Shown piece by piece: positions 6,449 through 26,430 of a stretch of 48,335 bases of DNA. The stretch lies in IMG/VR virus record IMGVR_UViG_3300000292_000047; one strand, given 5' to 3'. The notes below the pieces were generated by a model, which made no database searches, had not been told where the DNA came from, and saw nothing but the letters and a program-made list of their open reading frames with translations. This DNA comes from a virus. Lineage: Duplodnaviria; Heunggongvirae; Uroviricota; Caudoviricetes. Within the stretch, counting starts at the first letter, position 1; each line of letters begins with the position of its first letter. A program made the translations under genes and the position numbers.

Positions 6449-7516
6449 TCAGGCTTTCAATAGCGATTCTTTCAGATATCGGGCATCAGCCAGGGCGTTT
6501 GGCGTAATCTTGCGAACCCATGCATTACGGGTTGGACTCCACTTAAAGGCGCGTGATTTAAGCAGCGAACGAATGTTTGCCTCTGGTTTGCCAGGGAAAT
6601 AAAACAGGATGCGGTTATCCTCTGGATCTATCTCCATAGAAAAGCCGTCGTATTCTTCGCGCTGTGCTCCTGTTACAGACTTGACCGATTCAAGCTCCTT
6701 AATACGGCTCTGTAGTCGTTTGATTTCGGCGTTATTGTTGCTCAGTGCGTATGAAGGGAATCCGATGCGCCCACAGAAATCTCCGGCCAGTAACTCTTTG
6801 GCTTCGCTTTCTGTAAACCTGAGATCGATTAATGCAGAAAGCTGCTGTATTTGGTCTTTTTTGTATTTGCGAATGGCCTTATTTGCGGCCTTCATTTTGA
6901 CGTGTGACTTCATGCAGCCTTGCAGCTTACGAAGCAACTTAAATAGCGCATCAGGATCATCAGACGAAATTCCATTACGACCAACACCTGCGGCTTTGCT
7001 CTCGTAGTGTGATGCTTTACTTTCGCATTCAACAAACGCTTTTCTGAATAACGCATCAGCTTTAGACAAACGGCGGCGATGGCCTTTCGCGCTATAATGG
7101 TCAACTAAAATCGGCTGGCCTAACGGGATCACATCCAACAGGTCATGCGCTCGCTTATGCGCTACCGCACCTTCTTTTCTGGCTTTTTCTGCACGAGCAA
7201 TATATCGGGCAAGACGCGCGTTCTGGCGTTCCTGATAGGTGTTTACGTAATCATCTCCGCGCTGCTGCTGTTCAAGCCATGCTTTGCGCAGATCTTCTGT
7301 TACGTCCACCAGCTCCGCAGGGATACAACCAGTTTGGGCTTCATAAGAGTAACCATCCTCATAGATACGCCCATCGTCTTCAACAAAGAAAAAGGTTTCG
7401 TGCTCATCGCTTTTGACCATACGACCATTAACATGGCGTAATAGGTAGCCAGTATCAGTGCTTAACAGGCTGTTAGGGTTGTTGATCCAGTCAGAAATAA
7501 TTACTTGTTTATTCAT
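6449..7516 (-). CDS. Conserved hypothetical protein driven by leader copy B (possibly DUF3560-like)
   Basis: 355 aa from ATG 7514-7516 (MNKQVIISDW) immediately after leader SD ccggagaaatctg; family assignment from memory only. Confidence 0.55.
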   Translation of the reverse strand: MNKQVIISDWINNPNSLLSTDTGYLLRHVNGRMVKSDEHETFFFVEDDGRIYEDGYSYEAQTGCIPAELVDVTEDLRKAWLEQQQRGDDYVNTYQERQNARLARYIARAEKARKEGAVAHKRAHDLLDVIPLGQPILVDHYSAKGHRRRLSKADALFRKAFVECESKASHYESKAAGVGRNGISSDDPDALFKLLRKLQGCMKSHVKMKAANKAIRKYKKDQIQQLSALIDLRFTESEAKELLAGDFCGRIGFPSYALSNNNAEIKRLQSRIKELESVKSVTGAQREEYDGFSMEIDPEDNRILFYFPGKPEANIRSLLKSRAFKWSPTRNAWVRKITPNALADARYLKESLLKA

Positions 7517-7640
7517 CAGATTTCTCCGGTTTAACCAGGGCGGGTATCGCTCGGTTTCGGGTATAACCATAGGAAATTTTTTCCCACCTGTAAAGCACTT
7601 TTTATATAAATCTATAATTATATATTTATAGATTTTCGAT
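7517..7640. repeat. Copy B of ~105-bp promoter/5'-leader repeat
   Basis: Near-identical to 1-118 and 16999-17108. Confidence 0.85.
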
Positions 7641-7685
7641 GTTCCCGATGTCTACACACCATCAAAACAGCTCAAAATGACACTT

Positions 7686-8063
7686 TTACTCTCTTCGCTT
7701 TTTCAAATAGTCGACAACATACGCCCTGGCTTTTGCCAGCTTCCGGCGATACTGTCTGAGGCTAAGAGAAAGGGCGTGGGCTTTATCAATATGCGGTGCA
7801 TTTATGTCGAGGCCCCGAATCTCCCACGCCCCGTATTCAATTCGGACAACCAGCGCCGCAGTCTCATCAACTACCGTGAGGGCCGTCACCGCTCCCTCTA
7901 TACTGGTTTCCAGTGAGTCATTTGGTGCGCCGCCCCCTCCGGTAAACTGGCAGCGCGTAACCATCATCATTTCTAACATCGACGCGAAACCGCTACGGGC
8001 GTTGCAGCCATTGCGCACCCACAGCGCCCATAGCTCAAACAAGCTATCCAGATCGCGTCTCAC
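7686..8063 (-). CDS. Hypothetical protein; possible Q-like antiterminator (weak)
   Basis: 125 aa, GTG start; LFELWALW motif loosely resembles Q-family N-termini; sits immediately upstream of leader copy B. Confidence 0.3.
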   Translation of the reverse strand: MRRDLDSLFELWALWVRNGCNARSGFASMLEMMMVTRCQFTGGGGAPNDSLETSIEGAVTALTVVDETAALVVRIEYGAWEIRGLDINAPHIDKAHALSLSLRQYRRKLAKARAYVVDYLKKRRE

Positions 8064-8066
8064 TGT

Positions 8067-8399
8067 TCAGATCTCCCGTATCGTGACGGGATAAAGCGCC
8101 TCTACCTGCTTTTTCTTCATGATGTAGACGTCTGTTCGCACACCTTTAGTGTCGACACAATCAATCGTCCCATCGTCATAAAACACCATGAAATCAAGTT
8201 TATAAACGACACCACCTGGCAGATGAAAAGGCACCTGCATAAGAAACGTCACAACGCGGCCAGCTTTTCTCAGTAGCTTCAGTTCGCAGTAGTAATCAGC
8301 CTCTTTTTTGCTATCAAAAGCGATATCATCGACAACCGTTTTTTTATTGCCGTATTTGCTTTTCCTGGTCGCTGGTTTGCGAAAGCCGGTATATCTCAT
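8067..8399 (-). CDS. DUF1064-like phage protein
   Basis: 110 aa; SKYGNKKTVVDDIAFDSKKEADYYCELKLL motif typical of this lambdoid nin-region family. Confidence 0.55.
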   Translation of the reverse strand: MRYTGFRKPATRKSKYGNKKTVVDDIAFDSKKEADYYCELKLLRKAGRVVTFLMQVPFHLPGGVVYKLDFMVFYDDGTIDCVDTKGVRTDVYIMKKKQVEALYPVTIREI

Positions 8400-8800
8400 T
8401 TGGTATCCCCTGGTACTTCACCAAGACTAAGATCAAACCCAATTTCGTCTTTAACTGACTGCGGCAACAGCTCCCACGTCTGCGCACACAAAAATTCATC
8501 TGTGCCATAACGCTCAACAAAGCGAGCACAATTACTCAGGGGAGGGTGACGAACGGCAATATGCGGAGGCACACGCCCACCACCAGGCACAACACCGCGA
8601 TGATGTGGTGCGCACAACCCAAAGCTATGGAAGTGGCAATTCTCATCAACGCTGCCGTAATCAGGATCGTGATGTAGCTCCGTCCACAGCTCTGGATTCT
8701 CAATTTCACGGCCATCAATAATGCAAGCTATGCAACCCACGTGAGTGAGCACCGCTTGTATATAAAGTTTCTCTTTCTTCGTTGGTGTACGTCCGTTCAT
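8396..8800 (-). CDS. Cys/His-rich putative zinc-binding protein
   Basis: 134 aa; CIACIIDG...ELHHDP...HFHSFGLCAPHHRG. Confidence 0.45.
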   Translation of the reverse strand: MNGRTPTKKEKLYIQAVLTHVGCIACIIDGREIENPELWTELHHDPDYGSVDENCHFHSFGLCAPHHRGVVPGGGRVPPHIAVRHPPLSNCARFVERYGTDEFLCAQTWELLPQSVKDEIGFDLSLGEVPGDTK

Positions 8801-9033
8801 CAGCGCCCCTTACCATTGATAAAGAGGTTGAACTCGTTGATTAACTGGACATACATGCTTCTGGCCGCGTAGTTCTTTGCCAGCTCTTTACGGGATGAGA
8901 TCCCGCAAAACTCACGCAGAATCACAGAGGCCTCAGAACTGTTTGAAACGTTCTTCCCTGTTTTACTGGTCAGAAAGCGCCAGAATTGGGGATTCTGGCA
9001 ATGCATCGCAGCACCGCGAACATAACTACTCAT
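8800..9033 (-). CDS. Hypothetical protein
   Basis: 77 aa, ATG verified, operon context. Confidence 0.4.
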   Translation of the reverse strand: MSSYVRGAAMHCQNPQFWRFLTSKTGKNVSNSSEASVILREFCGISSRKELAKNYAARSMYVQLINEFNLFINGKGR

Positions 9034-9545
9034 TGATGGCCCCCGTCATTTCTGGTGCTTTTCACCGTGCGGCTTCTTAAAAACCTGCCATCACGAACAA
9101 CAGACACTTCTCGTTTACCCAACCTCATTTCACGGCGGTAACATTCAGAAAATGCCTCGTCCGGCATCATATAAATGCGACGCTTCGCCTCCGTATCCAG
9201 AAGGGAACGGCTTGGGGTTACATATAAGAACGACTCATCAATAGGGACAAAACCACGAGCAAGAATTGCTGGCAGAATACCAGGAAGAACGCAGAAAACA
9301 GCTCCACGATGCAGCAACATCTGGTACTCCATGACCTCCGTAATCCCCGTAACGACTGTTACGGTGTCACGTCTGTTACGGCTGGCAACCAGTCGCTGCA
9401 CACCTCCAATTTTCTGCTCTACAGATAGACGTTTGCTATCGTTATCAATATGATCGATAACAAATCCTTTAATCGTTTGATCAAGGTAGTGCACCACCTG
9501 CGATTGAATCTGGTGATTATCACCAAAGAAGGCCAGAATCATCAT
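9030..9545 (-). CDS. Hypothetical protein
   Basis: 171 aa, ATG verified, ATGA coupling with upstream gene. Confidence 0.45.
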   Translation of the reverse strand: MMILAFFGDNHQIQSQVVHYLDQTIKGFVIDHIDNDSKRLSVEQKIGGVQRLVASRNRRDTVTVVTGITEVMEYQMLLHRGAVFCVLPGILPAILARGFVPIDESFLYVTPSRSLLDTEAKRRIYMMPDEAFSECYRREMRLGKREVSVVRDGRFLRSRTVKSTRNDGGHQ

Positions 9546-10036
9546 TCCTCAAGCCTCCCAAGTGCTGAACGCCGGGCGTTGCTAATCTCCTTATGAATCA
9601 GCTCGATATCGCTGGAATCTTTATTCTTAAGCTCCAGCACGGTAATCGCATCACGAACCTCTGAAACGGTTACGTGTGAGTGTTTCCAGCGAGCAATGAA
9701 TCGCGGACCGCGTAGATTGCAACGCTCCGCAGGCATCCCCAGCTCAGAGAAAACCGCTTTCAGCCTTGATAAGCAGTTAACAGGGAGATTCCCTTTGATC
9801 TTGTTCTGCCGAACCGATGTGCCATCGCTACGCTGGCGCTGACGTTCGGCAAAATCTGCCGCCCATTGCTGGACGTTAATCCGGCCTTCCGAATACGCCA
9901 CCAGCAGCGTCAGGTTATCCGCACGAGGGAATCTCTCGAAGCGATACCAGGCACCAATCAGTGATGACGTAAAGCCAAACTTTCTGGCAACACCAATTTG
10001 GCCTCCATTTTCGTCAACCCACTCCTGAAAGGTCAT
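9542..10036 (-). CDS. Putative early regulator (first gene divergent from repressor; Cro/CII position)
   Basis: 164 aa; ATG 10034-10036 with GGAG SD; N-terminal HTH-like GVARKFGFTSSLIGAW. Confidence 0.35.
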   Translation of the reverse strand: MTFQEWVDENGGQIGVARKFGFTSSLIGAWYRFERFPRADNLTLLVAYSEGRINVQQWAADFAERQRQRSDGTSVRQNKIKGNLPVNCLSRLKAVFSELGMPAERCNLRGPRFIARWKHSHVTVSEVRDAITVLELKNKDSSDIELIHKEISNARRSALGRLEE

Positions 10037-17154: not shown

Positions 17155-17454
17155 TCAGATGTTAAACGCTATTCGTTTTCCTGTGGGAAGCTCAACATCC
17201 AGGCTTAATTTGCCTCCCATAGCTTCAACGTAACGCTTTAATGTCGCCAGCTTTAAATCATTTCCGCGCTGCTCCAGCTTTGTTACTGCTGGCTGGCTTA
17301 TACCCATCGCCTCAGCAACCTGTTTTTGTGATAACTGGAGTTCTTCACGCATCATCTGCAAGCCGACCTCAAGAATCATCTCATCTGCCATTTCTTTAAT
17401 TCGCGCCTGGCTTTCAGGTGAACGGCTGGCAATCACCTCATCTAATGTTCTCAT
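17155..17454 (-). CDS. higA: HigA-like antitoxin (XRE HTH)
   Basis: 99 aa; LSQKQVAEAMGISQPAVTKLE HTH; directly downstream of toxin gene. Confidence 0.65.
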   Translation of the reverse strand: MRTLDEVIASRSPESQARIKEMADEMILEVGLQMMREELQLSQKQVAEAMGISQPAVTKLEQRGNDLKLATLKRYVEAMGGKLSLDVELPTGKRIAFNI

Positions 17455-17801
17455 TACTTGCTCTCCAGTGTGTTCAGATGTGCTGCAAACTCATCCTCAG
17501 CTATACGCACCAGTTTTTCATAAAACCGTTTATCGTTACTTTTGTCTCCTGCACAAAGAACGATGGCCCGGCGAATCGGATCGAACGCATAAAAGGCTCT
17601 TATCGGACGGCCAGAAAACTGAACGCGAAGCTCTTTCATATTTTTGTACCGAGAACCTTTTACGGTATCGGCATATGGCCTGGGTAACTCAGGTCCGTAA
17701 ACCTGTAGCTTTTTCAAATCAGCCAAAACCTTTTCCTGAAGAGCGTCTTCTTGCTCATTTAGCCAGTCGTCAAATCGCTGGCTAAAAAGTACCGTCCACA
17801 T
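17454..17801 (-). CDS. higB: HigB / Gp49-family (RelE/ParE superfamily) toxin
   Basis: Track start is TTG; ATG 17799-17801 with AGGA SD; ELRVQFSGRPIRAFYAF...LCAGDKSNDKRFYEKLVRIAEDE pattern. Confidence 0.65.
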   Translation of the reverse strand: MWTVLFSQRFDDWLNEQEDALQEKVLADLKKLQVYGPELPRPYADTVKGSRYKNMKELRVQFSGRPIRAFYAFDPIRRAIVLCAGDKSNDKRFYEKLVRIAEDEFAAHLNTLESK

Positions 17802-17810
17802 GCTCAATCC

Positions 17811-18999: not shown

Positions 19000-19260
19000 C
19001 AGGCAAAGCCTGCGTAAGTTAAATAAAGAAAGTCTTAATAAAAGAAAGTGATTTTGCATTTATTTGTTTAGTGCATCTATTATAAAAAACCATTTGCATA
19101 TACATATCAGAACTGTGGATAACTTTATTAGCCGATGCCTGTAAAGGCGATATTTTTGCTGTGTTCAGGTTTAGAGAAAATTAATTTAGATTGTTTTTTG
19201 AACAGATATTTTATTGCGACGTAGATAATCCTCCGGTAAAACCGGATTCATCATTCAGGT
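19000..19260. promoter_or_regulatory. Candidate replication origin downstream of repA (AT-rich, DnaA box)
   Basis: Perfect DnaA box TTATCCACA on minus strand at 19114-19122; AT-rich flanks. Confidence 0.5.
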
Positions 19261-19263
19261 GGG

Positions 19264-20112
19264 TTAATGTTGGAGTGATTTCCAGGTCTTTCTTAACCTG
19301 TTATAACGCTGCTCAACGAGGGATCGTAAATATGCAAGGTCAGCACCAGGATACATGCCATCAGCAAATTCCTGACTAACCTCTCTGGTGATTTGATGAC
19401 GAAGTTCGGCCTCTCCCTTTTCCCGAACAAGACGCGCAGCTCTCTCCGCTGCTTTCTGTTTTGCCTTTATCTCTCTGGCCGTCTTCCTCTGACGCCATAC
19501 ATTCTCCATCTGCTCCTGAATAACAATACGCTTATAATCAGCCTCCGTTATCGCTTTTTTAAGCCGTTCGCTATTCTTCGCATTGAAGTAATTAAGTTTC
19601 TGGCTAACCGCACGTCTCCATGCTTGTTCAGTAATACCAACGGTTTCCAGCAGTTGATCACGAATCTCTATTTTCGCTGGCCAATACTGTTTATTCACCC
19701 GATCCCAGCGACGTTCATAATCAATAAAACCTAACGCTTTCAGTTGCGACAACGCCCTTGTACAGCGCGTTATAGACTTGTTCCCAGCTTCGGATACGGT
19801 AGACAGGCCGCAAAAATCAGCCAACGCCTCAGCACTAGCCAGAACCCGCTTAGAAATGATGTTTACATGGTGCAAAATCGCAGCGATCACAGCATTAATC
19901 GCCCGACGACGATGCTCGTTTATCCGGCGCTTCCGCTCTGACGGTTGATTAACGTAGAACGCAACCTCACACGTAAGATCACGCCCATTAATGCGCTGTA
20001 AAGCATCAGATAACACCAGCGGCAGCTTGTGCGTATGGTGCTTTGGAGGCTGGAACTCCGGCGACAAATTACAAACGTAAGCTGAACGTAGAGACGGCAT
20101 TGGTCTATCCAT
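19264..20112 (-). CDS. repA: IncFII-type (RepFIIA-like) replication initiator RepA; in-frame upstream ATG at 20244 possible
   Basis: RRRAINAVI and GLSTVSEAGNKSITRCTRALSQLKALGFIDYE align by eye with R100 RepA1 (RRRAIDALL, GLATESAAGKLSITRATRALTFLSELGLITYQ); ATG 20110-20112. Confidence 0.7.
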   Translation of the reverse strand: MDRPMPSLRSAYVCNLSPEFQPPKHHTHKLPLVLSDALQRINGRDLTCEVAFYVNQPSERKRRINEHRRRAINAVIAAILHHVNIISKRVLASAEALADFCGLSTVSEAGNKSITRCTRALSQLKALGFIDYERRWDRVNKQYWPAKIEIRDQLLETVGITEQAWRRAVSQKLNYFNAKNSERLKKAITEADYKRIVIQEQMENVWRQRKTAREIKAKQKAAERAARLVREKGEAELRHQITREVSQEFADGMYPGADLAYLRSLVEQRYNRLRKTWKSLQH

Positions 20113-20156
20113 ATGTTCGCTCTTGCGTCCACGGAAAACCAACGTATAATGGGAGT

Positions 20157-20237
20157 TGTCGAGGCGCCCATGGATTGTTGTTGTTGGTTTTCCGTGGATG
20201 TCGCAAGAAGCCCGCAGATTTATCTGCGGGCTTTTTG
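20157..20237 (+). ncRNA. CopA-like antisense RNA countertranscript to repA leader
   Basis: TTGCGT-N16-TATAAT at 20123-20150; strong terminator gcccgcaga-ttta-tctgcgggc + T5 at 20210-20236. Confidence 0.55.
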
Positions 20238-20710
20238 TTTCCATATCTGGTCACTTTCCAACCAGACACCCACAATCATAACCACGTTACGTGGTTTTAA
20301 GAGAACTCTACCACAACACTTTCGGTCATGCACGAAGTCTCTCACTGATCGAACGATAATCCACCAGTAAAAGGATCTAAATTGGATCTCGTTTTGCGAG
20401 CATCATACTACTGGCCTAACTCCAGTCAATGATTCCCAGCCAGAAACCTGCGGTAAACTCATCGTTCAGCAATATGCTGTCCGGCTTCAAAGATAAGGTG
20501 ACATCATCCCTTAACAGCGCGGCCAGTTCAGTTAAAGGGCTGTTCTGATTTAATGCTGGCCACTCATACCTGGTAATAAGTGGTCAGTCTTAACACTCAC
20601 CATTTGATTGCACCCGTGTTGACGATTTGTTACTGGATATCAGACACGCTGGATAGCCAGTAGAAACATACCATTAAAATTATTACAATAATTGGTCACA
20701 TGATTATCTT

Positions 20711-21274
20711 ATGCTGAATAATAAAGATATGAATATTAATGAACTTAAAGACTGTATTCACTATGAAGTAATCGGTAGCGAGCGTCCTTTCTCCTGGCGA
20801 AAGGCAATTGTTCGCGCAATAAAACATAGAAGGGTTCGTTATTTATTTTGGTGGCGCATAGCCAAATACCTTTTTGATAAAGGCGGATACTGTCGGAAGA
20901 TTGCGGGAAAAATAGAACGTTTCATTCTTGATAAATATAATGTAACAGTCCCTTTAACTGTAAATATAGGGAAAGGCTTTGATATTTCTTATCTCAACAG
21001 TGTTGTTATCGGTCACAAAGTAACAATCGGTGAAAATTGTTCAATTAAGCCCGGAGTAACTATTGGACTTCGCGGGGAATTTAATGATATGGATATTGTT
21101 ATAGGGCATAATGTGACCATTGGTTGTAATGCCACCATTCTTGGTGGCAAAGTGCGTATAGGAAACAATGTCACAATAGGTGCTCATGCATTGGTATTGC
21201 ATGATATTCCTGATGATTCAACATTCATCACTAAATTTCAGTCTGAAGTTATCTGCTCGTCCTCCCGAACATAA
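20711..21274 (+). CDS. Hexapeptide-repeat (left-handed beta-helix) acetyltransferase, moron
   Basis: 187 aa; repeated [LIV]-G-x-x-x-x hexapeptides; AT-rich relative to neighbours; 3' end overlaps convergent Tfa gene. Confidence 0.7.
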
Positions 21275-21855
21275 CCCTGATTCATCAGCTCTGGCCATAC
21301 GATATCCGGAGCTGTACTGGTGTCAATTCTACTCACTAATACTCTGTATTTTCTCCAGGAATCCAGTTGTGAATTTTCCTCGTTTGTTGCTATTTCAAGA
21401 TTAACTGCATCCTGCAGAATTGCGATGTTATCTGTTGCTTCCTGGATCAACCTTGCCTTTTTCTCTTCCGCTTCCCGTATCCGAAACAGTTTTTCTGCTT
21501 CCTCATCATTCACCCAGGATACGCCGTCCCACTTCTGATACTCCCCTGCTGGCGACAACCAGGTGACATTCTCTGGTAGCGGTCCGAGTTCAGAAATAAA
21601 CAATGCGTCCCCCGACGCCACGTCATAGACCGTTTTACCACGATGGTCTTCAACAATATTCCACGATTCATTTTCACTGTTAAAAACTGCCACAAAGCCA
21701 GCAGGAATTTCCGGTGGGGCGATATCTGTAGAATTAGCTGGCAGCCCTGTATGAGGTGGAATATATGCGTCACCTTCACCAATAAACTCATTAGTTCCGG
21801 CCAGCAGGTTATAAATTTTTACGGTACGTGATTGTTCACTCATTCTGAATGCCAT
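21238..21855 (-). CDS. Tail fibre assembly protein (Tfa)
   Basis: 205 aa; [42 protein letters not shown] typical enterobacterial Tfa N-terminus. Confidence 0.8.
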
Positions 21856-24701
21856 TATGCAAGCCTCACAATATAATTAAATGCGATGTTTTTAACGGTG
21901 TTTTCCGCGTTACCAGCAGCGTTAACGGTGATGGTGTGTCCATGTGAACCAATCGCAACAGAGTGCGTATGAGCGCCAATACCAACAGTGTGTGCATGTG
22001 CCCCAGCACTTGTAGCGGTACCTGATACTGAGTGGGTATGTGCGCCAGAAGAAGGCACAGTTCCATTCCCCACCACCGTGCCACTTGATGAACCATCCAG
22101 CCAGTCGAAATTCATACCGCCACTGTTTGGTCTCCTTAATGGAACGGTATGAGTATGTGCGCCAGCACTATTTGCAGTACCAGATACATTATGGGTATGT
22201 GCACCTGTGTTATTCGTTGATTTAGTACCGTAATCAAACGACGATGTGGTTTTCGTACCCAAATCCGTATTGGATGCGCTGGCACTGTGGGTGTGCGATT
22301 TAATGCCATCCTGTTCCTGAGACAATACGGCCCGACCACTGGCGGGTTTGCCCTTGATTGTCCAGCCGCGCATATCTGGAATAACACCAGAAGGATAGGC
22401 AATAGCCAGTTTCGGATATGCTGCCTTATCAAACGTCTGCCCCTGCATGATTGCATAACCTGCAGGTGGCGTATCTGATGGCCACGGCAGCGGAACACCT
22501 GGCGGAAACGCTTCAATATTTGCCGAGCCGTCAAATTTTACGCCGTTAATTGTCCTTGCCGTTTTCAGCTTTGTTGCTGTAGCAGCATTGCCGGATAGTT
22601 CGCCTGAAAGACCACCGCTGAATGTCTGTTTCGCCATCCATGTCTGAGCTTCGTCGATAATTGGCACACGTCTTGTCGTGATCGTGCGGCTTCCCGGATT
22701 TCCTGAAATGCGAACCATAAAAAAGCGGTAGTTGGCTTTACTTACAGTGCTGCGCCATACATGCATTGAGCGTCCCGAACCAGAATCATCACTCGGACCG
22801 ACTGAGATGTTTATCAGGTTGCCATCAATGACGCCCCAGTCCATACCGTCGGGAATATTGGTCATGTTATCAAGCCGAACGGTTATCAGACTGCCCGGCA
22901 CAAAATCGTAGGTCTGCCAGTCCAGGCTGGTGAGCTTTGCCACAGCACCGCCGATACCCAGATTCAGGGGAAGTGAATACGAGGTGTAGACTTCCCGCCA
23001 TTCGCTCCATGAGCTGCCGGTAAAGACGCGCTCAAAGGTGCGGCCTTTAAGGGTTGTACCTGTTCCGGCAGTTGTATAACGCTGCCATACATTAACACCA
23101 TCAAACCGCCTCAACACTTCCAGAATGCCGAGTACAGTCACGCCGTTTCCGTCCAGTACTGGACCGTTGGTCGCTTTACCTGTAACGCTGTAAATACCTG
23201 GTGAGGTTACATCATTCAAATCACCTTCGTAATAACGACTCTCTGACTGATGACCGACTCTTAACCACGGTTCCCACTGCGGATTTGATGCATCCCAGCT
23301 TGCCGCAAGACAGCGGACATACATATTTCCACGGCGAGTGGTATAACGTTGCGTTCTTCCATAATTTCCGCCTTCGAGGATCTCAAGCATCCCCTGAGCA
23401 AAGCCGCCTTCCTCTGGATAATTGCGTTCATATGAAGCTATAGCTGAGCTACTGTTACGCCATAAACCAAGATGCTCGGCGGCTCCAAGCGTATTCAGGT
23501 CTATAGTCGTACTCAAAGGGCGGGTAGCAGATTGAGTGTGACGCCATACGCCCCACGGACCATCAGTGCCATTCCACTTATTGGCGAGTTTACGCATGTA
23601 TACATTGCCGTCTCTCGTGGTAAAGCGTTGCGTACCTGCAAAATTGCCGGCAGCAAAAACCTCAAGCACACCGACAGCATTATCTTCCGGGAAATTTTTC
23701 TCCAGTGTTGCGTTGGTGGATGTTGCTTTAGACCAGATACCTGAATAAGCCTTAACAGGACCAAACGTATTCAGATCAGCATCAAGCGGCATTTCGCCAT
23801 TGTTTTTCATAAACGTCAGGCTGGTAACGCCAACATTGTCCAGAAAAGCTGATTTATCCTGGATATCTGCACCGTTCTGATTTTTCGCCAGACGTGAATT
23901 TGCGTTGTCATTTGCTGCCTTGACCGCTTTTGGCGTTGCCGCCTGCGTTTCAGACGTACTGTTAGTGGCACTACTGAGCTGAACTATCCCTTTTTGTGCC
24001 GTGGTGGCATTCTGGGCGGTATATTTTCCGTCAGCCAGGTCATATGCAGCCTTAACAGCCTTAGGCGTCGCTGCGAGCTTTTCAGACGTGCTATTGGTGG
24101 CATTACTGAGTTGAACAATGCCTTTTGATGTTAAAGTTGCATCAGGATGATTACGTGATTGCTCATGTTTTACAATAGCTTGCTTAAGCCGCTTTGCTGA
24201 AACAGCCAGGGAATCATCTGTACCTGCATCAATTTCTTGTTCATTAGCAAATCTTGCTACTCCAACAACAGTTTCGGTTGCGGGAGGGTTAATAAACTCA
24301 ACATCACCAAATGTAATGTTTTTAGTATCAAGATTTTTAATTGCTATATCACTTGATATTAAAGCAATTGTAGAAGATGCTTTATTTATTATTACTTGTT
24401 CTTGCGAGTATACAGCAAACAATGTTCCTTTATTTGTATACAACCCTATTGTATGGACAACATACTCATCTTTACTATCATCCTTCGCAGTTACATGAAT
24501 GGTATCAGGAGAAACGACTTTGCCTCCTATTGTGGTAAGTCGCTTTATTTCATCTGTTATTTTTGTTTGTGTGGTTGATGTGGCATAATATCTACTACCT
24601 AAACCAACAGAAACGATCTCAACTTTATTTGTTCCAGTCTTGTTGGCATTAACCAGCGCCTTACGCCCGGCGTCAGTCATCGTAAATAATAATTTACTCA
24701 C
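21855..24701 (-). CDS. Tail fibre protein (P2 H-like N-terminal/central region, His-rich C-terminal repeats)
   Basis: 948 aa, GTG start with AAGGA SD; [28 protein letters not shown] repeats like P2 gpH; C-terminal GAHTH(S/N/T)V repeats. Confidence 0.85.
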
Positions 24702-24731
24702 GCTTAATTCCTTGGATTAACAAATCGCAAA

Positions 24732-25313
24732 TTAGCACTCACCAATTAATCGTACATAAGACACAGGCTGGAAAGCACCGACAATACCAACACCACCTGA
24801 AACATTGGTTGCTTGCGAAAATGTAAATAGTGTTCTTGCCGACTTTGCACTCTTGATACTTCTTAACGTATCCTCCAACATCTCTTTCGAAGGAACAGCA
24901 CCATCAAAAGAGTTAATCGAAGCAACAATTGAGGCTGTATATGGTTCGCCAGGTGGTGATGTTTCAAACCATTCTGTTATGTTTACCTCTCCACCCAAGC
25001 TATTTACTACATCTTCAACCGCTGCCCTTGTACCCTTTATTCGCTTTGTTCGTATTATTGATTTAAAAACAGAACGCTTTAACGATACAGGCCAACTATC
25101 CCTCCATGTATCAGCATTCCATTGCCAAGCTAAATGATCGAGAACAACTGAGTCCAGGTTATCAACAACGCTATATATTTCTGTCTTATATATTAAATTG
25201 TTAATTGCTTGTAGTTCATCATCAATAGCTTTCGACATAGCTATCACGTTGGGATCGCTAGCTAAGTTAGGAGGTAAAACATCCAACAAGCTAACATTAA
25301 AGATATCAGCCAT
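24732..25313 (-). CDS. Tail/baseplate protein, P2 gpI-like
   Basis: 193 aa, position between J-like gene and fibre; RTKRIKGTRAAVEDVV motif. Confidence 0.65.
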   Translation of the reverse strand: MADIFNVSLLDVLPPNLASDPNVIAMSKAIDDELQAINNLIYKTEIYSVVDNLDSVVLDHLAWQWNADTWRDSWPVSLKRSVFKSIIRTKRIKGTRAAVEDVVNSLGGEVNITEWFETSPPGEPYTASIVASINSFDGAVPSKEMLEDTLRSIKSAKSARTLFTFSQATNVSGGVGIVGAFQPVSYVRLIGEC

Positions 25314-26430
25314 CCTCTAACCCCGCATACTGGCAATTTATATTTCTCTCTCTGGCGACCTGTGTCTCTCCAACCACATTAAAAACAGGACTTGATATTT
25401 CTAATCTTTTAGCCCCAGCATTTTTTAAACGTTGAATAATTTCATCTGGATTTATATCTCTTCCCATAACCGAACGTTGCCATTGTTTATACTCATCAAT
25501 AGCTTTCTCAACCTCACTTTGAATTAAAGTTGTTCTGTTTTTGTCCGATGAGTTAATCCAGTATTTAATTATTATATCGTATTCAATGCTCTCTGGTTTC
25601 TTAACAAGAACTTTATCTGTGAATGGTCGAATATTAGTTGCAGAGAGAACGCTATTTATCTGCTCTAATAGTTCATCAGAAGGTATATCTCCGTTCTCTA
25701 ACAAAGAACGGATTTCTACAATTCCGGGCGATGGTGTATATACATTCACATCTTTTATATTCTGATTGGCTGTTCTTGTCCAATATTTATAAGAATCCTC
25801 CGGCCCTGCTGTAGACAGTTTTTCCGGCGACAGTTTTATTCTTTCAGCATAATTATCATCTGACTCCGTATCAGCACCAGAATTAGATGTTGTTACATTC
25901 CTTACGCTGGAAACATACGGCAACGGAGTCACCAACTCATTTATTTGCCCTGGTAAAAAGCCATTCCCAGATAAACCAGGTATAACAGCATATCCTGAGA
26001 CTGTACCAACTGTTTTCCCAGCAGGTATTTCCAACAAAATATCTGTTTGGAAAATAACACCATTTCCAGTTGAAACTTGAGTGCCAGCAGGTATTGTATA
26101 TATCCCCGATAATTTTGTTGACAGATTAAACTCAAATGTAGTCAAGGCAGATTGAGCTTCCAGCCTAGGCGTATCCGTCAGATAGCCTATATGGTCGAGA
26201 TATTCACCTTCACCATATGTAAGAAGGTTTTGTTTTGCAGAAAAATCGATAGCTTTTCTTTGCTGTATAATAATCTCACACAATGATAAGATGAATAATC
26301 TACGTGGATCAGCAGGTGCTAATGTTTCACCTGTTATACTCTCAAAAGCCCTGATTGAACGAGTTGTTATATCAGTCGGGTTAGAATCTGCGAAAGTAAT
26401 ATCTGGCAAACCACCACGCGGCAACGTCAT
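25306..26430 (-). CDS. Baseplate J-like protein
   Basis: 374 aa; size, order W-J-I-H. Confidence 0.7.
   Translation of the reverse strand: MTLPRGGLPDITFADSNPTDITTRSIRAFESITGETLAPADPRRLFILSLCEIIIQQRKAIDFSAKQNLLTYGEGEYLDHIGYLTDTPRLEAQSALTTFEFNLSTKLSGIYTIPAGTQVSTGNGVIFQTDILLEIPAGKTVGTVSGYAVIPGLSGNGFLPGQINELVTPLPYVSSVRNVTTSNSGADTESDDNYAERIKLSPEKLSTAGPEDSYKYWTRTANQNIKDVNVYTPSPGIVEIRSLLENGDIPSDELLEQINSVLSATNIRPFTDKVLVKKPESIEYDIIIKYWINSSDKNRTTLIQSEVEKAIDEYKQWQRSVMGRDINPDEIIQRLKNAGAKRLEISSPVFNVVGETQVARERNINCQYAGLEDG

Follow-up and report, generated by a model that had tools for sequence, protein, structure and literature searches.

A left-handed beta-helix acyltransferase-family gene that accompanies tail-fibre cassettes in E. 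coli prophages and phage-plasmids

Facing the tail fibre assembly gene (tfa) of certain E. coli prophages and phage-plasmids is a small gene for a left-handed beta-helix (LbH, hexapeptide-repeat) protein of the acyltransferase family, which appears from sequence comparison to be an accessory gene coupled physically and evolutionarily to the receptor-binding module. What sets this gene apart is its systematic coupling to fibre cassettes together with a remodelled catalytic pair; its homologues have been noticed twice before, with no function assigned. The copy analysed here lies in a 48,335-nt stretch of DNA (IMG/VR record IMGVR_UViG_3300000292_000047), hereafter the window. Because non-phage relatives are found in polysaccharide loci, one of them in a Leminorella waa operon, we hypothesize, at somewhat less than an even chance, that the protein is made in the lysogen and modifies LPS or some other surface glycan, matched to the receptor of the co-transferred fibre and giving exclusion.

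The gene and its immediate neighbours

The original prediction, made from the letters of the window alone, described an AT-rich, plus-strand hexapeptide-repeat gene lying between the replicon and the tail-fibre genes and converging with tfa over about 37 bp, and it is borne out in each of these particulars (Table 1). Pfam Hexapep (PF00132) matches the protein at E 1.1e-12 (47.5 bits vs a cut-off of 27), and phrog_2154, a family of 'unknown function', matches it over its full length at E 6.9e-79, residues 5-186 corresponding to profile positions 2-184/185 (residue numbers of the protein are those of the 187-aa frame). At a GC content of 0.377 (GC3 0.30) the ORF is poorer in GC than tfa (0.456), the fibre gene (0.471) and the window as a whole (0.445). 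On one side lies repA and on the other tfa (Caudo_TAP in Pfam) and the fibre gene, and the overlap with tfa is exactly 37 bp. Because the phrog_2154 match is full length, 184 of the 5426 complete E. coli genomes carry the gene (at 158 chromosomal places and 58 times on a plasmid) and dN/dS among its alleles is 0.02-0.09, the ORF is a real gene under strong purifying selection and not a chance ORF.

Table 1. Coordinates of the features discussed, in positions of the window
Feature	Position	Strand	Remarks
IncFII-type RepA gene, upstream neighbour of the LbH ORF	19264..20244	-	
Whole imported cassette: gpU fossil, LbH gene, tfa, distal tail fibre	20458..23907	.	comparison with vB_YpM_39
gpU fossil, last 29 codons of a P2 gpU-like tail gene (...SSFSNMLSGFKDKVTSSLNSAASSVKGLF, then stop)	20458..20548	+	matches the 3' end of gpU in prophage L015
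Putative sigma-70 promoter: TAGAAA, 17-nt spacer, TACAAT	20661..20689	+	consensus scan, 9/12 matches
LbH (hexapeptide-repeat) acyltransferase-family ORF	20729..21274	+	181 aa; alternative start 20711 gives 187 aa
Thr79 codon	20945..20947	+	at CysE Asp143 / WcaB Glu position
Tyr94 codon	20990..20992	+	at catalytic His position (CysE His158, WcaB His)
Convergent overlap of LbH ORF and tfa, 37 bp	21238..21274	.	due to loss of the tfa stop codon by a 2-bp indel
Tail fibre assembly protein (Tfa), 205 aa	21238..21855	-	PF02413 E 1.1e-39; phrog_105 E 1.1e-93
Tail fibre gene, 948 aa	21855..24701	-	Phage_fiber_2 and Collar domains

The second of the two candidate start codons, the ATG at 20729, is probably the conserved one, since the upstream ATG is missing from an allele 92% identical to the window gene (that of prophage L016), homologues start MDINELK, more distant ones have their first Met at the equivalent position, and PGAP calls both. 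The 37-bp overlap is particular to the window allele, in which the indel deleted the tfa TGA and made Tfa longer by 15 residues than the form that ends in WPEL; in other alleles and homologues the spacing between the two genes is -14 to +43 bp. A regulatory design was accordingly rejected for the overlap, which is a by-product of the indel.

Homology of all four cassette versions begins approximately at the -35-like TAGAAA (at 20660, one base upstream of it), and the -10 element is TACAAT or TATAAT in four of the four. This conserved promoter-like edge fits a self-contained transcription unit with a putative promoter of its own. The earlier label of moron agrees with this edge, with the low GC content, with an orientation opposite to the late operon and with the occurrence of the gene on several unrelated backbones. 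No terminator-like site was found between the convergent LbH and tfa genes, and a search of 20600-21350 found no tandem repeats of the kind associated with NeuO phase variation.

Protein family, predicted fold and active-site positions

The best NCBIfam matches of the protein are of the EpsC, CysE and WcaB types (the EpsC-type and WcaB families being NF007564, TIGR04016 and NF041874), and all lie far under their cut-offs: EpsC-type, 81.2 bits vs 150; WcaB, 62.4 vs 196 and 60.1 vs 194.65; CysE, 71.5 vs 210.65 (TIGR01172) and 44.7 vs 397 (NF008349). Pfam gave Hexapep-type matches only, with no acyltransferase-3 domain, and among the PADLOC-DB defence models no family matched at E<=1. The xenobiotic, LacA, Maa, Vat and CatB types were rejected at 25-33 bits vs cut-offs of 300-475. 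Despite the 'serine acetyltransferase' label, the best homologues are thus not taken to be metabolic enzymes: the catalytic and serine-binding residues of CysE are absent and the scores fall far short.

An AF2 model (pLDDT 91.4, from 93 sequences) predicts a left-handed beta-helix of serine-acetyltransferase-like fold, and all of the PDB matches listed for it by Foldseek are LbH serine acetyltransferases, at TMq ~0.7. In hhalign comparisons E. coli WcaB scored 99.2% probability and E. coli CysE 98.7%, the latter over CysE residues 109-236 only: the N-terminal ~108 residues of CysE and its C-terminal tail have no counterpart in the window protein (181 aa vs 273).

Within this conserved fold, the catalytic positions differ. 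Four independent alignments, phmmer, MAFFT and hhalign among them, agree in placing Tyr94 and Thr79 at what would be the His and acid positions of the active site, and the serine-binding Arg192-His193 of CysE align with Met127-Asp128. An exhaustive HMMER search of 1.84 billion representatives yielded 7982 relatives at E<=1e-3 and 4 at E<=1e-30; of 116 full-length representatives, 114 have His at the catalytic position, one has Asn and one has Tyr. In the phage clade, the members that keep His (His-type) all have Asp or Glu at position 79, and those with Tyr (Tyr-type) all have Thr, Lys or Val, a pattern which argues that both positions changed together, in a narrow clade. The change to Tyr is fixed and has been kept under purifying selection down to 53% identity, and outside these positions the helix, like the C-terminal coils, is as well conserved as in active relatives. 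Since the His/acid pair is replaced, the chemistry is uncertain. The LbH acyltransferases crystallised by 2011 all share the catalytic His (PMC3046976).

A mobile cassette of fibre tip, Tfa and LbH gene

The window is an E. coli phage-plasmid of ~48 kb. Over the LbH locus it shows 100% identity to many plasmids of 47-50 kb in PLSDB, its structural half is matched by the partial phage record vB_EcoM-613R2, and its backbone is common to three Yersinia phages, vB_YpM_39, 41 and 44, at ~98.7% identity. At 17155-17807 lie genes for a RelE/ParE-family toxin and an HTH antitoxin, so annotated in the identical plasmid pSCU-204-5; together with a ParA gene and an ORF6N-domain gene further upstream, they form the plasmid-maintenance half of the phage-plasmid.

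The extent of the imported segment is given by comparison with vB_YpM_39 (L184, OR545053.1), which matches the window at 19097-20457 (98.4%) and again at 23908-26000 (95%). In place of the intervening 20458-23907, that phage carries at its positions 7194-9875 an Sv-U / U'-Sv' invertible fibre module of the Mu/P1 type, with two Tfa genes, a gp37_C-type alternative tip and the invertase gene hin; the LbH gene is absent from it, as from lambda-type Stf/Tfa loci. In the window element, the cassette therefore displaced an invertase-switched double fibre module. The first 91 bp of the imported segment, between the region upstream of repA and the LbH gene, are a fossil of a gpU gene. A P2-like chromosomal prophage (L015) has an intact gpU-family gene (PF06995) immediately upstream of the same LbH gene, and the fossil differs from its 3' end by two bases and one residue (N for D). 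Since gpU is intact there, segment 20458-23907 is taken to have been imported from a P2-like prophage. At 23898-24169, inside the tail fibre gene, there are Phage_fiber_2 repeats that cross-match several positions of other fibre genes; these are likely recombination substrates for cassette exchange.

Parts of the cassette recur on other backbones. P1-like phage-plasmids (L002) share window positions 20641-23833 at 94.5%, and there too the segment replaces the cin/C-segment region; the P2-like prophage L015 shares 20458-22506 at 95.7%, and another myoviral prophage (L016) shares 20660-22508 at 82%. Because these blocks are held in common with other backbones, the core of the cassette can be taken to run from the promoter region through the LbH gene and tfa to the final ~217 codons of the fibre gene. 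The fibre tip (21855-22506), in the window a mosaic related to lambda Stf-family tips, is common to all cassette versions. Fibre tip, Tfa, LbH gene and promoter-like sequence thus move as a unit among at least four phage backbones: P2-like prophages, P1-like phage-plasmids, the ~48-kb phage-plasmid of the window and other myoviral prophages. Recombination breakpoints fall within tfa and the fibre gene, and the LbH gene co-varies with the C-terminal third of Tfa (breakpoint 21458).

A synteny census of 80 IMG/VR loci plus further loci extends this association to distant homologues. The Tyr-type copies with an intact flank all converge on a Tfa gene, at -37, +10 or +35 bp, with a sole exception (L140). 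Some 20 more distant His-type homologues (34-49% identity) likewise converge on Tfa at -14 to +43 bp, and two face a fibre gene directly; named examples of this arrangement are the homologues of Hafnia phage yong2 (53% identity), Citrobacter phage phiNP ('sat', 39% identity) and the P1-like JL22. The Tfa/fibre association recurs in at least five phage backbones, in homologues only 34-53% identical. Elsewhere, homologues are located at prophage ends beside int or host genes, or are chromosomal orphans; the contexts of an Erwinia copy (L024) and of P0016 and P0014 are of the orphan kind and uninformative. In the P1-like JL22, the homologue named 'sacF' (L014, 1773-9140; 36% identity, His-type) is probably inside the cin-invertible segment, because it lies between U and tfa and adjoins cin; inversion would make it run either with the expressed fibre genes or against them.

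Relatives in glycan loci and the receptors of Stf-type fibres

The window gene itself sits between repA and tfa, outside any polysaccharide or LPS cluster. Three non-phage homologues (P0087, P0025 and P0028; 30-35% identity) are found among genes of glycosyltransferase, flippase, NeuB/sialic-acid and polysialyltransferase type, and one clade member, in Leminorella grimontii, occupies an LPS-core operon of the order waaP-waaB-waaI-waaY-waaZ-[LbH], convergent with waaL (L023, 490-6836). In Salmonella that position in the operon is taken by waaK. The Leminorella protein is His-type, ~40% identical to that of the window and its best match in a set of bacteria with one genome per species; it shares with the clade the motif FWWR, which formed part of the search pattern. 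The closest relatives of this gene (45-63% identity) are prophage genes that face Tfa/fibre genes or lie at prophage ends, and for this reason the waa and phage copies are placed in one clade. Placement in a waa operon concerns this one clade member, other relatives being chromosomal orphans or located at prophage ends beside int: a second waa-embedded homologue was not found, and the four closest Leminorella relatives inspected are all prophage-borne. The Leminorella copy could be a phage gene recruited to the operon, or the source of the phage clade.

The original prediction had further supposed that such enzymes commonly acetylate the O-antigen or other surface glycans and bring about serotype conversion and superinfection exclusion, and here the results are less favourable to it. 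For the O-antigen the supposition is only an analogy, as Oac and GtrC belong to a different family and the LbH precedent is NeuO. O-antigen-specific conversion is held to be unlikely: alleles that match the window gene at 97.0-97.2% of nucleotides come from strains labelled O6:H16, O139:H1 and O121:H19, and the known phage O-acetylases are of another family. Near-identity across O6, O139 and O121 disfavours an O-serotype-specific target and favours a more conserved substrate. The broader proposal of surface-glycan acetylation stands in part, the surface glycan being favoured by the polysaccharide and waa context of relatives; with the catalytic His replaced by Tyr, the acetyltransferase activity is putative.

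The receptors of related fibres offer a mixed picture. That of the Gifsy-1 Stf-type fibre is Gal II of the LPS outer core (PMC12312913); Ur-lambda Stf, by contrast, binds the protein OmpC (PMC12617516), and this counts against the glycan reading, since a cytoplasmic acetyltransferase could not modify that protein. In the literature we found mentions only of clade members and no functional test of any: the role of JL22 'sacF' is called 'still unknown' (PMC9603915), and that of phiNP ORF4 'fitness' (PMC6456863).

A working model and its rivals

On the reading that we tentatively prefer, that of a surface-glycan modifier, the LbH gene would have a promoter of its own and be read against the direction of the late operon and without dependence on it, which would make it active in the lysogen as well. 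Its product would work on the cytoplasmic side of the inner membrane, where its substrate would be lipid A-core or a different lipid-linked intermediate of a surface glycan. The altered surface structure would be met by Stf-type fibres, such that phages with the same fibre type would adsorb less; superinfection exclusion, or the shielding of progeny from re-adsorption, would be the outcome. With Tyr94 and Thr79 in place of the canonical His/Asp pair, the chemistry may be altered (for example, towards an amine acceptor needing no general base), or the protein may bind its target instead of catalysing. A portable pair, in which tip and Tfa recognise the LPS core and the Tyr94/Thr79 protein alters or sequesters it from the cytoplasm independently of His, so that host range and self-exclusion are exchanged together, is quite unlikely in our estimate.

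The replaced residues also invite the reading of a pseudoenzyme, an LbH trimer scaffold that transfers no acyl group and works by binding a ligand or partner, such as CoA, a lipid-linked glycan, an LPS enzyme of the host, or a component of the fibre or of Tfa. The substitution of positions that are otherwise so uniformly His, and in every His-type phage homologue His with Asp or Glu, its fixation under purifying selection, and the catalytic His shared by all LbH acyltransferases crystallised by 2011 speak for it. Against it, the helix and C-terminal coils are conserved as in active relatives, and none of the data indicate a partner. The LbH sugar N-acetyltransferases QdtC and WlbB, moreover, work without a catalytic base. 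A pseudoenzyme is in our judgement unlikely. Rather unlikely, too, is a passenger, that is, an acetyltransferase for a small molecule, metabolite or xenobiotic that has nothing to do with the receptor and occupies a permissive site behind tfa and hitch-hikes when fibre cassettes recombine. Accessory genes of all kinds insert at the 3' end of fibre operons, and mere adjacency could thus reflect hitch-hiking; the weak resemblance to LacA, Maa, Vat and CatB, the homologues at prophage ends and as chromosomal orphans, and the breakpoints inside tfa and the fibre gene are all in keeping with such a passenger. It fits poorly with the low scores against xenobiotic and sugar acetyltransferases, with the recurrence of the Tfa/fibre association at such low identity on so many backbones, and with the nearest non-phage contexts, which are polysaccharide or LPS loci.

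Tight linkage to tfa and the co-variation with the C-terminal third of Tfa might instead point to a role in virion assembly, with the fibre or Tfa being acetylated or chaperoned by the protein. This is very improbable, given that the gene runs opposite to the late operon, that many related Stf/Tfa phages, lambda included, do without it, and that some homologues are distant from any fibre gene, with one in a waa operon; to our knowledge, acetylation or chaperoning of a fibre or Tfa by such a protein has no precedent. As for the name under which the gene is filed in RefSeq, GenBank and PLSDB, 'serine acetyltransferase', it is unsupported because the catalytic and serine-binding residues of CysE are absent and the scores are too low. 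The name and the closest solved folds, which are those of CysE, would favour a genuine CysE-like serine O-acetyltransferase raising cysteine synthesis in the lysogen, but CysE function was rejected, the matches lying far below both CysE cut-offs, the alignment being confined to residues ~109-236 of CysE, and His158, Asp143 and Arg192-His193 being replaced by Tyr, Thr and Met-Asp; such an enzyme is extremely unlikely.

Comparison with known systems

By family, the nearest counterparts are of the WcaB/EpsC type, which resemble the window protein in size (~160-190 aa) and in having a short helical N-domain followed by the LbH; the window gene differs in being phage-borne beside tfa and outside a polysaccharide cluster, and in having Tyr and Thr where WcaB has His and Glu. 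CysE, by comparison, is the closest solved fold, but the window protein lacks its ~108 N-terminal residues, its tail, His158/Asp143 and Arg192/His193.

Other likenesses are of arrangement. Llp of T5, encoded beside pb5, and Cor, encoded after the tail genes of phi80/N15-type phages, are receptor-masking outer-membrane lipoproteins that bind FhuA. By analogy, the LbH gene too would be an accessory gene tied to the receptor-binding module, with a proposed blocking action on the receptor which that module uses, although those proteins are outer-membrane lipoproteins and the one here is predicted to be cytoplasmic and enzyme-like. Oac of Sf6 and GtrC are integral-membrane acyltransferase-3 proteins encoded near int/att; the logic of lysogenic conversion is the same, whereas the window protein is a soluble LbH protein without an AT3 domain. 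The neuO gene lies beside a tailspike gene. NeuO, the polysialic-acid (capsule) O-acetyltransferase of prophage CUS-3, is an LbH enzyme with catalytic His and Trp (PMC3046976). Like the window protein it is prophage-encoded and soluble, and it modifies a surface glycan that such phages recognise; unlike the window gene, in which there is no tandem repeat and His is replaced by Tyr, it has phase variation by a 5' heptanucleotide VNTR. NeuO is absent from the PDB sequence matches of the LbH protein at E<=1e-3 and belongs to a different LbH subfamily.

If a glycan is indeed changed, a swap of fibre cassettes would pass on a host-range determinant and, in the same event, the resistance or exclusion determinant that matches it. 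Cassettes of this kind are frequent among E. coli prophages and phage-plasmids, and some of the latter (P1-like) disseminate resistance genes; the gene would thus be of relevance to the prediction of phage susceptibility, to phage therapy and to engineered Stf-based delivery particles. A widespread misannotation as 'serine acetyltransferase' would be corrected, and the Tyr-type clade is a natural case in which to ask whether an LbH acyltransferase functions when the catalytic histidine is missing.

Damaged, tandem and accompanied copies

Damaged copies of the LbH gene occur occasionally (H112, H139, H140, L145 and protein P0001): in strain E8 an IS1 insertion splits it, there are 5' or 3' truncations, and a frameshift near the tfa overlap gives a 230-aa read-through variant. 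The gene is dispensable in some hosts. On the chromosome of Enterobacteriaceae bacterium BIT-l23 (L003, 8001-9697), three clade LbH genes stand in tandem (49%, 38% and 39% identity to the window protein), away from any phage genes. In Salmonella and Pseudocitrobacter prophages (L190, 4261-4980; L191, 5555-6271), an unannotated gene of ~238 aa without a Pfam match accompanies the LbH gene beside tfa, and may be a second component of the cassette in these lineages.
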